This document shows, piece by piece, positions 26,476 to 29,632 of a stretch of DNA of 64,000 bases; position 1 is the first letter of the stretch, and the number at the start of each line of letters is the position of its first letter. The notes under the pieces are model-generated. The model was not told the DNA's origin, did no database searches, and was given only the letters and a program-made list of their open reading frames with translations. The stretch comes from Bacteroides sp. (lineage in GTDB: Bacteria; Bacteroidota; Bacteroidia; Bacteroidales; Bacteroidaceae): assembly GCF_017992695.1 (NCBI RefSeq), contig NZ_JAGOOC010000001.1. One strand, written 5' to 3'. A program made the position numbers and the translations under genes.

Positions 26476-28458
26476 ATGAGTACAGCACGCTATAAGATCA
26501 TTCTATCTTTATTGATTTGTATAGAACTTTCACTTTCCTCTGTCTTTTCACAAACACCTGTCATTGATAATCTCAAAAGCACACTAGATCGACATATCCA
26601 GACAGACACCGCCAAGGTAAATTTGCTCAATAAACTGGCCTACGAACTCTTTACTTATGATGTAAAAAAAACGAAGAAGTATGCCGAGCAGTCACTAAGA
26701 ATGGCTATACAGCTCAACTACCCCAAAGGGAAAGCCGCCGCTTTATGCCTCGTTGGAATGACCTATAGCAAGAATGACCCTAACTTATCACTCACTTACT
26801 ACAAACAAGCGTTACAAATAGCAGAGCAGATAAATGACCAATCGGGTATCAGTACTTATCTAATGAGCATCGGCATTGCGAATAAAGCAGTGGGCAATAT
26901 TGAAGCGAGTAACAAAGCATACGATCAAGCGCTACAAATAGCTATTGCACTGAAAGATCAGTCGCAACAGATCAAATTACTGCACAATATTTCACTCAAC
27001 CGTTCAAGTATGGGTCAATATCCCGAAGCCGTAGAAAGTCTTCAAAAGATGATAGCTATGACAAGTAGAGTGGGCGACAAACTTATGTTATTGAAAGGAT
27101 ATTCAAGCATAGCTGTTATATACCAGCGTCAAGGAAATTCTCCTCAAGCACTCGAGCATTACCTTTCTGCTCTAAAAATAAGCGAACAATTAGATAAGAA
27201 ACAGAGTATTGCCAGCATTTTAATTAATATAGCAGGCATCCAGTCGGATCTGAACGAAAGTAAAACAGCACTCGAAACTCTTCATCGGGCCCAACAATTG
27301 GCTAAAGAGATGGGCGACTCGGCTATACTATCAAACTGCCTCACCAACATCGGCAATGTCTATAAAAAAATGAAGCATCCCAAGGCTTTACAGTATCTTC
27401 AAGAGGCACTTCAAATGGTAGGTGAAAAGAATATGGCTTTAAAAATCAACTTATTAATGAATATTGGTTCGATATATGCTGAAGAGAGTGAATTCGACAA
27501 AGCAGAGAAGAACTTAAATGAAGCGCTCGAAATGGCTCAGCACGCAAAAATTAAATACGCAGGCAGTGAAGCATTACAACTACTAGGCAACTTGTACTAC
27601 AAGAAAAAAGAGTATAAGCGCGCCATTGATTGTACAAAAGGCTCCTTACAGATAAGTAATGCGATCAACTATCTGGAAGTAAAGAAAGACAATTATAAAT
27701 TACTGTCTGACATCTATGCTGCAACCGGCAATTACAAAGAAGCCTACCAGAACCACACCCTATATAAACAACTGAATGACAGCGCTTTTAACGACAAGAA
27801 CGTTCGTAAGATAGCTCTCATGGAGAGTGCGTACAAATACGATAAAGAGAAGCAGAGGTATGAGATGGAGAAGGCGAATCAGCTACTAAAAATAACCAAT
27901 CAACACTATTTTATTCTCTTTCTTGGCATTGTCATTCTTCTGGTAATCATACTTTCGTATCAACTCTATCTCTCCAATCGATTGAAGAAGAAAGCACTCC
28001 GACTGGAAATTGATCAGATAAACAGTCAACTGGAGTACAGCCGTAAAGAGATGGCCTCGGCTACACTAAAACTTATACAAAGTTCCGAAAGCGATGCCTA
28101 TTGCATGAAAGTATTGAAAGGCATCGAGAATAACATCAACGAAGAAGGAGGGAAAAATGTACACTCGCTCATCAACTATTATCAGAACAAGTCAGTTTAC
28201 ACCAACTGGGAAGAGTTTGAAACGCTGTTTCTCAAAGTAAATTCGGACTTTTACGACAAGCTGAACGAACACTTCCCAACGCTTACACTCAACGAACGTA
28301 AACTATGTGTGTTCCTGAAACTAAATATGAGCAACAAAGATATTGCCCAAATCACTTTTCAGTCTGACGAGGCATTGAAGAAGGCGCGTATGCGCTTGCG
28401 CAAGAAATTCCAAATGGATCGCGACGAAAACTTGATCTCTTTCATACAAAATCTTTAA
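26476..28458 (+). CDS. Membrane-spanning TPR-repeat / LuxR-type HTH transcriptional regulator
   Basis: N-terminal signal segment, many TPR-like repeats, TM helix (YFILFLGIVILLVIILSY), coiled coil, C-terminal FPTLTLNERKLCVFLKLNMSNKDIA...KKARMRLRKK; no kinase motifs. Confidence 0.88.
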   Translation: MSTARYKIILSLLICIELSLSSVFSQTPVIDNLKSTLDRHIQTDTAKVNLLNKLAYELFTYDVKKTKKYAEQSLRMAIQLNYPKGKAAALCLVGMTYSKNDPNLSLTYYKQALQIAEQINDQSGISTYLMSIGIANKAVGNIEASNKAYDQALQIAIALKDQSQQIKLLHNISLNRSSMGQYPEAVESLQKMIAMTSRVGDKLMLLKGYSSIAVIYQRQGNSPQALEHYLSALKISEQLDKKQSIASILINIAGIQSDLNESKTALETLHRAQQLAKEMGDSAILSNCLTNIGNVYKKMKHPKALQYLQEALQMVGEKNMALKINLLMNIGSIYAEESEFDKAEKNLNEALEMAQHAKIKYAGSEALQLLGNLYYKKKEYKRAIDCTKGSLQISNAINYLEVKKDNYKLLSDIYAATGNYKEAYQNHTLYKQLNDSAFNDKNVRKIALMESAYKYDKEKQRYEMEKANQLLKITNQHYFILFLGIVILLVIILSYQLYLSNRLKKKALRLEIDQINSQLEYSRKEMASATLKLIQSSESDAYCMKVLKGIENNINEEGGKNVHSLINYYQNKSVYTNWEEFETLFLKVNSDFYDKLNEHFPTLTLNERKLCVFLKLNMSNKDIAQITFQSDEALKKARMRLRKKFQMDRDENLISFIQNL

Positions 28459-28589
28459 AAAGAAGCAATAGTAAAACTGCTACTCGGTAACATATAAAAT
28501 AATTTCGCTGTTTTTGCTTACCAAGAAAGTGAAAATGGAAAGTACTGATATTCGAAACTATAATTGATCAAGCGAAGGAAAATTTCGCT

Positions 28590-28647
28590 TGTCCACTTTT
28601 TGTCCCTCCCCATTTCTTTATACAACGACAATCATTATCTATGTTTG
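28590..28647 (+). promoter_or_regulatory. TGTCC direct repeat (11-bp period) upstream of a -7 element
   Basis: TGTCC at 28590 and 28601; TATGTTTG at 28640-28647 with no TTTG at the canonical -33 spacing. Confidence 0.5.
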
Positions 28648-28803
28648 TATCACAATCGGAAGAAGACTGCCTATACATTCTTTTATAAAATCCAGGTTAG
28701 TATTTTCTGAGAATTTGCGCTTCACTATTTATTTGTTTTAGGCTTAAAAGGGCTCTGGCCTTTGACAAATATTTATAAACAACAAACAAACAAAGAGTCC
28801 AGT

Positions 28804-29124
28804 ATGAAAATTAGTATGAAAAAAGTATTCGGTTTACTATTTATTGCAGCTGTAATGAGTAGCTGCGCAGTTGGCAAATCACCTATTGCCGGACTTGCTT
28901 ACACAGACATTAAAGACGGACTTACTGTAACCTCCAACACAGGTTCATCCAAAGTAGGTACAGCCAAAGCTGTAGGCTATGTAGGGCTGGTAGCTACAGG
29001 CGATGCGAGTATTGAAGCTGCTTCTAAACAAGCAGGTATTACCCGTGTTCAGCATGTAGACTATCAAACTACATCTATACTTGGCATTTATACAACTTAC
29101 ACGACTATTGTTTATGGGCAATAA
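28804..29124 (+). CDS. TRL-like family small lipoprotein
   Basis: Lipobox VMSSC; GLVATGDASIEAASKQAGITRVQHVDY...SILGIY..TIVYG pattern typical of TRL-like proteins; start at 28804 or 28816. Confidence 0.8.
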   Translation: MKISMKKVFGLLFIAAVMSSCAVGKSPIAGLAYTDIKDGLTVTSNTGSSKVGTAKAVGYVGLVATGDASIEAASKQAGITRVQHVDYQTTSILGIYTTYTTIVYGQ

Positions 29125-29632
29125 TCAGATACAAACATACATTGTATCATTGTTATTTTGCGTATTCTGCCTGTCACTGTACGGGCAGAATATCAAAAAA
29201 AACTACGTCATTAAAATACAGGAACAGGGAAATCTTTATCATTTTTTGCCTATCGCCTTATTTGAAGACACCAATGGAGAGAGGTTAGTGTATGACCTTA
29301 CGTATACGACTTGGAATGATAGCATAATGATGAACTTTACCTTTATAAAAACGGAGCCTTTATTGATTGATTCCATAAGATATATTTCGGGAAACATCAG
29401 CATTGAAGGAAGCGTCGATAAACTTTATATAGAACCAACTGCTAAGAAATGGACGCACAGATACTCCTTAGTGAGTAAAGCCGATGATTTCTTCCAACTA
29501 TACAACTCCAGCACTACTCCCAAGATACTTATTTACTCGAATGGTATAGCACACCATTATCATGTAAATAAGTCAAATTGGAGTAAGTATGTGCCAATAG
29601 GGCAAAAGATTTTCAAAATGACACGTTTGTAA
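29114..29632 (+). CDS. Hypothetical secreted protein, translationally coupled to the TRL-like gene
   Basis: ATG at 29114 overlaps the TRL-like stop; signal peptide ending SLYG; beta-rich mature region. Confidence 0.75.
   Translation: MGNNQIQTYIVSLLFCVFCLSLYGQNIKKNYVIKIQEQGNLYHFLPIALFEDTNGERLVYDLTYTTWNDSIMMNFTFIKTEPLLIDSIRYISGNISIEGSVDKLYIEPTAKKWTHRYSLVSKADDFFQLYNSSTTPKILIYSNGIAHHYHVNKSNWSKYVPIGQKIFKMTRL

Follow-up and report, generated by a model that had tools for sequence, protein, structure and literature searches.

A putative SusR-like transmembrane regulator and its candidate operator at a TRL lipoprotein locus of a gut Bacteroides

To our knowledge, one-component transmembrane regulators of Bacteroides are well known only through SusR and the use of glycans. 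The predicted sites of SusR, a membrane activator that senses the periplasm, are direct repeats (PMC3878776). In a 64,000-nt stretch of DNA (the whole stretch that was analyzed, hereafter the window) from a gut Bacteroides with a 2.7-Mb genome, we found an ORF (26476..28458, + strand) encoding a 660-aa protein, REG, that resembles SusR (BT3705) and SusR-like proteins in being a single polypeptide that starts with a signal or anchor and has a periplasmic sensor made of helical repeats and one TM helix. Judging from its sequence, REG would also share with SusR a cytoplasmic coiled coil, a C-terminal HTH, and the lack of a phosphorelay. Both proteins are restricted to Bacteroidota, and the target promoter, putative in the case of REG, is adjacent. 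The two differ in that the REG sensor is a canonical TPR array of 9-10 repeats (~440 aa), unlike that of SusR, and in that the candidate operator of REG is compact with an 11-bp-period repeat, whereas the two predicted SusR sites lie 67-77 bp apart. In addition, the cargo of SusR is the susC/susD glycan system, while that of REG consists of small envelope proteins. Control of an adjacent susC/susD-type glycan locus upon sensing an oligosaccharide, as expected of a SusR, has no counterpart here, as no susC or susD gene was found between polA and cysE around the locus, where the neighbors of REG are TRL, partner, and D (see below). The output region of REG aligned with that of a true SusR (hhalign probability 77%, E 2e-5). 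The SusR model NF058541, on which the true SusR scored 642 bits, matched REG over the TPR part only, with 16.5 bits (E 0.0036) against a cut-off of 480. Pfam DUF6377 (cut-off, 36.7 bits; 2.3e-96 for the true SusR) gave no match at E up to 1 with the cytoplasmic part of REG or at E up to 0.1 with the full protein. REG is thus SusR-like in its predicted architecture, with a distantly related output domain, and falls outside the SusR models.

Further relatives were found on the sensor side. FimS, a TPR-sensor histidine kinase of Porphyromonas (NF053520), matched REG at 3.8e-38 over aa 291-510 and shares its TPR and TM scaffold, and other Bacteroidota proteins of the TPR-TM-output type carry kinase, SpoIIE phosphatase, cyclase, or GGDEF outputs. 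Unlike FimS and these proteins, REG has a predicted DNA-binding domain as its output, which would make for a one-step signal path. The BT3442 family (NF053779), which is curated for Bacteroides and includes a TPR stretch, matched REG weakly over the TPR region (3.1e-13; 49 bits against a cut-off of 940). Directly upstream of a TRL operon in one other genome (G102), a TPR-PAS-SpoIIE protein was encoded.

The architecture of REG was determined using Pfam and NCBIfam scans, hydropathy, an HTH profile, and a family alignment. A signal peptide occupies aa 1-25, and in the alignment the signal-like N-terminal segment stops before a nearly invariant Q26. The periplasmic TPR array (~aa 45-430; strong Pfam match to TPR_12, 4.1e-36) is followed by the sole hydrophobic helix, assigned as the TM helix (aa 479-497; nt 27910-27966), with NRLKKK directly after it. 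The cytoplasmic part consists of a coiled-coil linker and then a predicted LuxR/GerE-type HTH at ~aa 600-655 (nt 28273-28440). These features predict a topology with the TPR array outside and the HTH inside. Neither a kinase (HisKA/HATPase_c) nor a receiver domain was found in REG by the Pfam and NCBIfam scans, and REG is not a two-component protein. The combination of a TPR array, one TM helix, and an HTH lends support to the proposal, made previously from a sequence-only reading of the window, that REG is a one-component transmembrane regulator. Some distant TPR homologs of REG do carry kinase or receiver domains.

With E values of up to 0.1 allowed, Pfam GerE (PF00196) did not match REG alone. 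A profile built from the C-terminal 100 aa of 23 REG homologs matched the DNA-binding domains of DosR/DevR, EsrB, NarL, and GerE (1.2e-5 to 0.05), and the C-termini of 10 of the 23 matched Pfam GerE themselves (best, 2.6e-7). DosR/DevR, NarL, and GerE have a four-helix HTH, and the alignment of the REG-family profile with DosR (E 1.2e-5) covered the whole domain. REG also carries the C-terminal motif of its family, LTxNERKLCVFLKLNMSNKDIAQITFQSEEALKKARxRLRKK, and the recognition region of the HTH is nearly invariant throughout the family, paralleling the invariant box described below. REG differs from DosR, NarL, and GerE in having no receiver and no phosphorylation, in being membrane-tethered, and in its candidate site, a direct rather than an inverted repeat. 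The half-site, GTCC, resembles what we take to be the DosR half-site, GGGAC/GTCCC. No paper on the REG family was found in the literature on TRL/PF13146, Bacteroides TPR-LuxR regulators, or DUF6377.

Re-reading of the window confirmed the gene coordinates and all of the sequence features given in the sequence-only reading. The REG gene is followed, after a gap of 345 bp, by a two-gene unit, as had been described. It begins at an ATG (28804) with the gene of a 106-aa TRL-family lipoprotein (28804..29124, + strand; PF13146), which at its stop shares 11 nt (ATGGGCAATAA) with the gene of the partner, an exported protein of 172 aa (29114..29632, + strand). TRL has 102 aa if the conserved MKK at 28816 is taken as its start. 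It matched PF13146 over the full model (positions 1-77) with 94.2 bits (6e-27) against a cut-off of 25, it has a lipoprotein signal with the lipobox MSSC, and the alignment showed a conserved core, GDASI...VD...VYGE. The protein is 100% identical to one from B. neonati. The structure model of TRL was of low confidence (pLDDT 63) and had no significant PDB match; a weak likeness to 1vr4 (TM 0.4-0.5, E 3.6) was set aside as not constituting evidence. PDB sequence searches with TRL and D likewise returned nothing significant. On the model of the Leptospira adhesin Lsa14 (NF047877), TRL scored 45.3 bits, below the cut-off of 120. TRL is paired here with a partner family outside Pfam, and an adhesin role is unsupported. 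One TRL-like match was seen in a Helicobacter phage-like record, and the genome of B. thetaiotaomicron, which served as a control, has no TRL.

The partner was defined by its signal peptide, an AF2 model, and its conservation next to TRL. Its signal peptide is of the ordinary kind and ends ...LYG/Q, and the model (pLDDT 88.5) consists of a soluble-looking Ig-like beta-sandwich and a C-terminal helix. A fold search with this model against the PDB gave only generic immunoglobulin-like matches (TM 0.3-0.5), and Pfam and NCBIfam scans gave none. The family of the partner, unnamed and made up of ~170-aa proteins, has 644 cluster representatives in a library of 1.84 billion proteins; no copy of the partner was found on plasmids. 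The 11-nt overlap suggests that the partner is translationally coupled to TRL. It had also been proposed that the two proteins form an outer-membrane complex. Nothing that we found shows such a complex: TRL has no acidic signal after the lipoprotein Cys, which is presumably what directs surface export, and the partner looks soluble. The roles that had been suggested as examples (envelope stress, surface exclusion, and resistance to toxins or phages) likewise gained no support.

Downstream of the partner lies the gene of D (29681..30028, + strand), a 115-aa cytoplasmic coiled-coil protein with four Cys that was characterized through its neighborhood and family scans. D matched no family and showed a weak similarity to the ClpX zinc-binding domain (E 0.13). 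Its gene follows that of the partner only in the window, in B. neonati, and in L003/L004, and a paralog with 56% identity occurs in an unrelated context (C15:15228-15578). Because of this unlinked paralog and its absence at most TRL loci, D was rejected as an unproven fourth member of the module, and its membership is doubtful.

Direct reading of the sequence upstream of REG revealed a full promoter (26405..26436, + strand), as the sequence-only reading had claimed, with a -33 TTTG (26405-26408), a 20-nt spacer, and the -7 box TACCTTTG (26429-26436). It fits TTTG/TAnnTTTG, which is reportedly the consensus of the primary sigma factor of Bacteroides set out by Bayley et al. in 2000. Downstream of REG, a terminator-like scan identified a probable terminator (28569..28591, + strand), a hairpin followed by a T run, of which the 3′ arm abuts a 16-bp candidate operator, the REG box (TGTCCACTTTTTGTCC; 28590..28605, + strand). 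An equivalent hairpin was seen in B. neonati and was not conserved where REG is divergent. The box, a direct repeat of the form TGTCC-N6-TGTCC, was recognized by its conservation and its uniqueness in the genome: it occurs once in the 2.7 Mb, even with 1 mismatch allowed, and is not found in the promoter of REG itself. Of 9 genomes, 8 likewise had a single copy, and this copy always lay at the REG or TRL locus; the reversed pattern, used as a control, had 0 matches in the same genomes. In the window the box ends 34 nt before the -7 box of the TRL operon (TATGTTTG; 28640..28647, + strand), which was assigned from its sequence and its spacing to the REG box. The -33 region of this promoter is degenerate (TTTC, 28613-28616), and transcription is expected to start near 28652-28656.

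Across Bacteroidota, the box adjoins 56 of 79 REG homologs, at ~6-380 bp from REG and always oriented toward the neighboring gene, in most cases one for an exported protein; in the other 23 loci, some of which are contig ends, no box was found with 2 mismatches allowed. TGTCT and TGTCCCC are rare variants of the box. A -7 box of the form TAnnTTTG begins 34-35 nt past the end of the REG box in 46 of 68 family instances. The box was kept in all examined REG-linked TRL loci and, in four TRL loci that lack REG, was missing in front of TRL. In genome G195 the REG gene is gone from between prfB and TRL, yet the box and the operon are kept, and the only REG homolog detected there sits elsewhere without an adjacent box. 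In the window and in B. neonati, the box overlaps the hairpin and T run that resemble a terminator of REG. The box cannot be a terminator of REG, since in divergent loci it precedes the REG start, and the distance of 34-35 nt to the -7 box argues against a sigma -35 element; both assignments were rejected. From its placement and conservation, the box is very probably the docking site of REG.

The leader of the TRL operon (~150 nt) contains a conserved hairpin or DNA inverted repeat (28732..28769, + strand). RNAalifold, applied to only 7 related sequences, predicted 10 pairs, 4 of them with compensatory changes, and across these 7 sequences 92.9% of the hairpin cells were paired vs. 33-51% in slid controls. 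No Rfam family matched within 25000-31000 at E up to 0.1. The segment 30089-30330 was considered as a structured element and rejected, as it is the remnant of a protein gene.

REG, TRL, and partner were found adjacent in at least seven other species or contigs, with different flanks and in two orientations, which argues that the arrangement is not due to chance. The expected co-occurrence of the three genes held, but they are not an obligate trio. TRL and partner form a conserved pair across the order, adjoining each other in at least 10 of 15 TRL-bearing genomes. REG accompanies the pair in a single clade; the pairs that other families of the order carry occur without it. Every examined locus with a partner homolog of 38-80% identity (B. 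neonati L043, L003/4, L005, L006, L051, and L054) has an adjacent REG, co-directional or divergent, with differing flanks, and the identities of REG, TRL, and partner drop in step across the loci. Seen from the side of REG, only 3 of 79 species-level homologs adjoin a TRL gene, and TRL-linked rows fall in at least four separate branches of the REG tree, suggesting frequent loss or exchange of cargo. Eight genomes have a clade-I REG with no TRL beside it, and in seven of these the whole genome lacks a TRL gene; dedication to TRL is therefore not a trait of the REG family. Elsewhere in the family the same box fronts other cargo, most commonly a small outer-membrane barrel but also large surface proteins and membrane AraC proteins, and the cargo is nearly always exported to the compartment of the TPR domain. 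The adjacency that is kept despite inversion and changed flanks, the co-divergence, and the genome-unique promoter box make the previously suggested regulatory link from REG to the TRL operon very probable.

We consider it likely that REG is a SusR-like transmembrane activator of the TRL-partner operon that acts through the box. REG would be made from its own consensus promoter and would cross the inner membrane with its one helix, the TPR array lying in the periplasm and a divergent HTH of the LuxR/GerE type in the cytoplasm. TPR arrays commonly bind peptides and proteins, and the periplasmic cue that would meet the TPR domain is, for this reason, probably a peptide or protein. The membrane-anchored REG, probably as a dimer, would bind TGTCC-N6-TGTCC, centered ~55 bp upstream of the transcription start of a promoter with a good -7 and a poor -33. 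Binding would turn on a single transcript with the structured leader, from which TRL, a lipoprotein facing the periplasm, would be produced together with the translationally coupled, Ig-like exported partner. The two probably act together in the envelope.

It is conceivable that REG and the TRL operon are mere neighbors, with the targets of REG lying elsewhere and the 16-bp word being a promoter or terminator element, the site of another factor, or a junction of cassette exchange. REG orthologs in TRL-less genomes and TRL-partner pairs without REG would agree with this, and the gene that follows the box varies greatly within the REG family, as a recombination junction would predict. The overlap of the box with a hairpin and T run in the window recalls a terminator, but the divergent loci speak against that; a different factor could have a site that travels with such promoters, but an unlinked global factor should have more sites than one per genome, found only at REG or TRL loci. 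The fixed distance to the -7 box and an orientation that tracks the cargo also fit a promoter-proximal activator site, and we regard the absence of any link as unlikely. Were REG a repressor or dual regulator, it would block or loop the TRL promoter until a periplasmic signal arrived, and the leader hairpin would add a second, post-transcriptional layer. Some LuxR/GerE-type HTH proteins are repressors, and the hairpin or inverted repeat conserved in the leader could act as an attenuator or as another operator. However, a box near -55 in front of a degenerate -33 is the usual geometry of activation, and SusR, the architectural relative, activates (PMC3878776); we think repression quite improbable.

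Finally, the partner or TRL could itself belong to the sensing circuit, with the exported partner, whole or as a fragment, binding the TPR array and feeding back on REG as in receptor-signal pairs. That TPR arrays bind peptides and proteins, that the cargo is delivered almost throughout the family into the compartment of the TPR domain, and that REG, TRL, and partner co-diverge would suit such a circuit. The nearly invariant architecture and the box of the family nevertheless also serve unrelated cargo (outer-membrane barrels, large surface proteins, membrane AraC proteins), and genomes lacking TRL or partner still have REG, making feedback of this kind very hard to credit. Activation of the TRL-partner operon by REG is the reading that we retain.

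On a broader and more tentative level, the REG family may represent a Bacteroidota-wide portable sensor-operator-promoter unit with swappable exported cargo, in which TRL and partner would be an inducible envelope module answering to a periplasmic peptide or protein cue; we see this as a real possibility while stopping short of calling it likely. A periplasmic TPR receptor would be joined by one helix to an HTH, and this nearly invariant HTH would read one nearly invariant 16-bp box; the cargo would be TRL-partner here, 8-strand outer-membrane barrels in a PAS-containing clade, and membrane AraC regulators or large surface proteins in other lineages. With a candidate operator that is precise and unique in the genome, both the regulon and whether control is positive or negative can be tested directly, and REG with its box, a compact pair, could, once the signal is known, be used in Bacteroides engineering as an orthogonal inducible switch. 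The REG family is a distinct and widespread sister family to SusR, and the locus provides a first putative regulatory context for two families with no assigned function, TRL (PF13146) and that of the partner. In different lineages, the same sensor-box unit precedes different exported cargo.

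The window (G000:C61:156289-220288) comes from a 2.7-Mb Bacteroides genome, G000, whose nearest named relative at this locus is Bacteroides neonati MS4. Four plus-strand genes lie between polA (end 25730) and cysE (start 30605), where G+C content is 0.36-0.39 vs. 0.44-0.49 in the flanks: a regulator gene termed REG (26476-28458; 660 aa), TRL (28804-29124), a gene for an exported partner protein (29114-29632; 172 aa) and D (29681-30028; 115 aa). Reading of the sequence bore out the gene coordinates of the sequence-only reading and its 345-bp gap between REG and TRL. The coupling it had described for TRL and partner is present as an 11-nt overlap (ATGGGCAATAA), and REG has a promoter of its own (TTTG at 26405-26408, a 20-nt spacer and TACCTTTG at 26429-26436) that follows the Bacteroides consensus, TTTG (-33) / TAnnTTTG (-7).

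The interval between polA and REG (25799-26380) is a variable slot. The window has a 161-aa open frame there (25846-26331), for which neither a family nor a paralogue within the genome was found; B. neonati has three other genes (131, 113, and 510 aa) in its place, and the flanks align at 80-83% identity. Between D and cysE, the stretch at 30016-30456 was ruled out as a structured RNA and is instead a degraded gene, since B. neonati has the intact gene (L043 9542-10255; 237 aa), of which only two fragments (aa 1-76 at 47% identity and aa 169-231 at 84%) survive here. D, a 115-aa coiled-coil/four-Cys protein, has a 56% identical paralogue among housekeeping genes elsewhere in G000 (C15:15228-15578); a specific association of D with the TRL module is therefore improbable.

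Pfam analysis of REG returned TPR families only (TPR_12, 4.1e-36), with no kinase or receiver domain, and a single hydrophobic helix (aa 479-497) is followed by NRLKKK, in agreement with the TPR array, lone transmembrane helix and missing kinase and receiver domains proposed from sequence alone. The top NCBIfam match was to FimS, a Porphyromonas kinase, in its TPR part. In the family alignment, an N-terminal signal-like segment ends ahead of a nearly invariant Gln26. Because of this segment, the lone helix with its NRLKKK, and the need of the C-terminus for access to DNA, we infer that the TPR array is periplasmic and the C-terminus cytoplasmic. The final 60 residues are almost invariant among homologues, down to 43% overall identity, with the C-terminal sequence LTxNERKLCVFLKLNMSNKDIAQITFQSEEALKKARxRLRKKL. 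The LuxR-type HTH of the sequence-only reading has support at the level of a family profile, but REG of the window had no Pfam GerE match by itself: a profile of 23 REG-family C-termini matched the DNA-binding domains of DosR/DevR (1.2e-5), EsrB, NarL, EvgA, and GerE, and 10 of the 23 matched GerE singly. Two further G000 proteins end in an HTH of this type (profile E 3e-17 and 2.6e-12), a 544-aa protein encoded near a SusC-like gene (C47:39072-40706) and a 510-aa protein encoded just upstream of the window (C61:151624-153153), which is the genome's weak match to the SusR model.

The nearest known system is SusR, a membrane activator that senses the periplasm and occurs only in Bacteroidetes; its predicted sites are direct repeats 67-77 bp apart (PMC3878776). 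A bona fide SusR of a related genome shares the overall architecture, and in hhalign its C-terminal region matched the REG profile at E 2e-5. Based on this alignment, the TPR/TM/HTH layout, and the HTH profile matches, REG is predicted to be a one-component transmembrane regulator of SusR-like architecture with a distantly related LuxR-type output domain. In contrast to SusR, REG has a canonical TPR array as its sensor, a compact candidate site whose repeat period is 11 bp, and envelope proteins rather than glycan utilization genes as its cargo. Whereas the bona fide SusR reached 642 bits with NF058541 and 2.3e-96 with DUF6377, REG matched the SusR and BT3442 NCBIfam models weakly, far under their cut-offs, and lies outside the SusR family as curated. 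A literature search found no paper on the REG family, TRL function or the partner family.

Alignment of the DNA upstream of TRL in REG-linked loci revealed a candidate operator, the REG box (TGTCCACTTTTTGTCC; 28590-28605), a direct repeat of the form TGTCC-N6-TGTCC. It occurs once in the window's genome at ≤1 mismatch, and the pattern TGTCCNCTTTTTGTC had exactly one copy in eight of nine genomes of 1.7-6 Mb, each at a REG or TRL locus, while the reversed control pattern gave 0 matches. Four TRL loci that lack REG had no box in the DNA before TRL. At ≤2 mismatches it adjoins 56 of 79 REG-family genes, directly after the REG stop codon or just upstream when the genes are divergent, and always reads toward the next gene. 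A TAnnTTTG -7 box begins 34-35 nt past it in 46 of 68 instances; in the window the -7 box of the TRL operon is TATGTTTG (28640-28647), with a degenerate -33 region. This spacing would center the REG box near -55, and the promoter has the look of one that depends on an activator. HTH and box are both nearly invariant, as would be expected of a cognate pair. Two other roles for the box were discarded, that of a terminator by the divergent loci and that of a sigma -35 element by its spacing.

The TRL product clearly belongs to PF13146 (94 bits) and is a lipoprotein with the lipobox MSSC. Its structure model was weak. The partner has an ordinary signal peptide (...LYG/Q), no match in Pfam or NCBIfam, and an AF2 model (pLDDT 88.5) consisting of an Ig-like β-sandwich and a C-terminal helix, with generic PDB neighbors only. 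Among 1.84 billion cluster representatives, a search by profile yielded 644 relatives, all ~170-190 aa, making the partner a member of a sizeable unnamed family. TRL was present in 15 of 151 genomes sampled across the order. The TRL-partner pair is conserved as a unit of its own, because a partner-like gene stands beside TRL in at least 10 of these 15 genomes and does so in two layouts, one with the partner directly behind TRL (here and in four other families) and one with a 163-aa lipoprotein between them. Loci of the second layout (L031-L037) encode a short TRL (93-97 aa, ...ISTVD...TIVTGE), a 162-163-aa lipoprotein to which no family could be assigned, and a partner-like lipoprotein (motif FETFYVGEDGTQYFIKP). 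The pair was not found on plasmids.

Whether the three genes co-occur elsewhere depends on the side from which the question is asked. REG was adjacent at every readable locus of partner homologues of 38-80% identity (B. neonati L043, L003/L004, L005, L006, L051, and L054), co-directional with TRL-partner in three loci and divergent in four, with differing outer flanking genes. Identity to REG, TRL, and partner of the window drops in step, from 83/100/80 to 45/61/38%, the TRL protein of B. neonati being 100% identical to that of the window's genome. Seen from the partner, REG is linked to the pair within one clade. Seen from the regulator, the link is not general: TRL is nearby in only 3 of 79 species-level REG homologues, the TRL-linked rows of the REG tree are spread over at least four branches within clade I (660 aa), and seven of eight genomes having a clade I REG without an adjacent TRL have no TRL gene anywhere. 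TRL-partner pairs at greater distance (G055, G092, G157, G116, and the three-gene type) also have no REG-type regulator. G102 is an exception in that a TPR-PAS-SpoIIE protein is encoded immediately upstream of its TRL operon, so that a TPR sensor and TRL genes are paired a second time, independently; at this locus (L035, G102:C68 6003-10101) an 882-aa phosphatase gene is followed by TRL, a 162-aa lipoprotein, and a partner-like 168-aa protein.

One genome may present a natural trans arrangement. In the Parabacteroides MAG G195 (L131, G195:C45 7582-9918), REG is gone from between prfB and TRL relative to L005, but the box, TRL, and partner are kept, as is an 872-aa LRR gene. The single box of this genome lies at the REG-less TRL locus, and the only REG homologue from the locus scan is on another contig (L048), with no box beside it.

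Alongside the observed anatomy, conservation, and box statistics, the wiring of regulator to operon suggested by the sequence-only reading is now computationally well founded, but does not extend across the REG family. We consider it likely that REG controls the TRL-partner operon through the box. Constitutive production of REG would be driven by its own promoter, a periplasmic cue would act on the TPR array, and the membrane-tethered HTH, probably dimeric, would occupy two TGTCC half-sites one helical turn apart and activate the adjacent promoter. The transcript would have a ~150-nt leader and encode TRL and then, by translational coupling, the partner. The leader contains a conserved hairpin or inverted repeat (TTTGTT..AGRC...GYCT..AACAAA; 28732-28769) with four compensatory pairs in seven loci and 92.9% pairing vs. 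33-51% for slid controls; it might serve in RNA stability or attenuation, or be a second operator.

That these genes are neighbors with no regulatory link, the box being the site of another factor or a cassette junction, we regard as unlikely. Binding of REG to the box and the sign of regulation are both inferred, and a role for REG as a repressor or dual regulator, at a promoter of activator-dependent appearance, seems less likely still. A signal for REG, and an interaction and function of TRL and partner, for which the sequence-only reading proposed an outer-membrane complex and stress or defense roles, are likewise presumed; feedback of the partner or TRL on the TPR sensor appears very improbable.

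The gene next to the box nearly always encodes a signal-peptide protein, with examples including TRL, large secreted proteins, lipoproteins, and, at 25 of 79 loci (chiefly those of clade II), a ~180-aa OMP_b-brl barrel; at a few loci the next genes are membrane AraC regulators or a bactofilin cluster. Clade II regulators (~830 aa, PAS-bearing) typically stand beside this eight-strand barrel gene (PF13505) behind the same box (L061-L118; e.g., L061 2001-2555 and L100 8853-9392), and in G157 a related barrel gene (L029 8226-8750) lies divergently next to TRL and partner. Two or three boxes, each fronting a separate exported-protein gene, occur at L080, L077, L103, L106, and L107; those of L080 (8946, 11078, and 13068) precede three paralogous repeat proteins and those of L077 (13858/14009) two divergent genes. 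This suggests that multi-box loci are small multi-promoter regulons. At some clade I loci (L044, L045, and L059), the gene behind the box encodes a membrane protein whose C-terminus is an AraC-type HTH, an arrangement that would make a two-step regulatory cascade.
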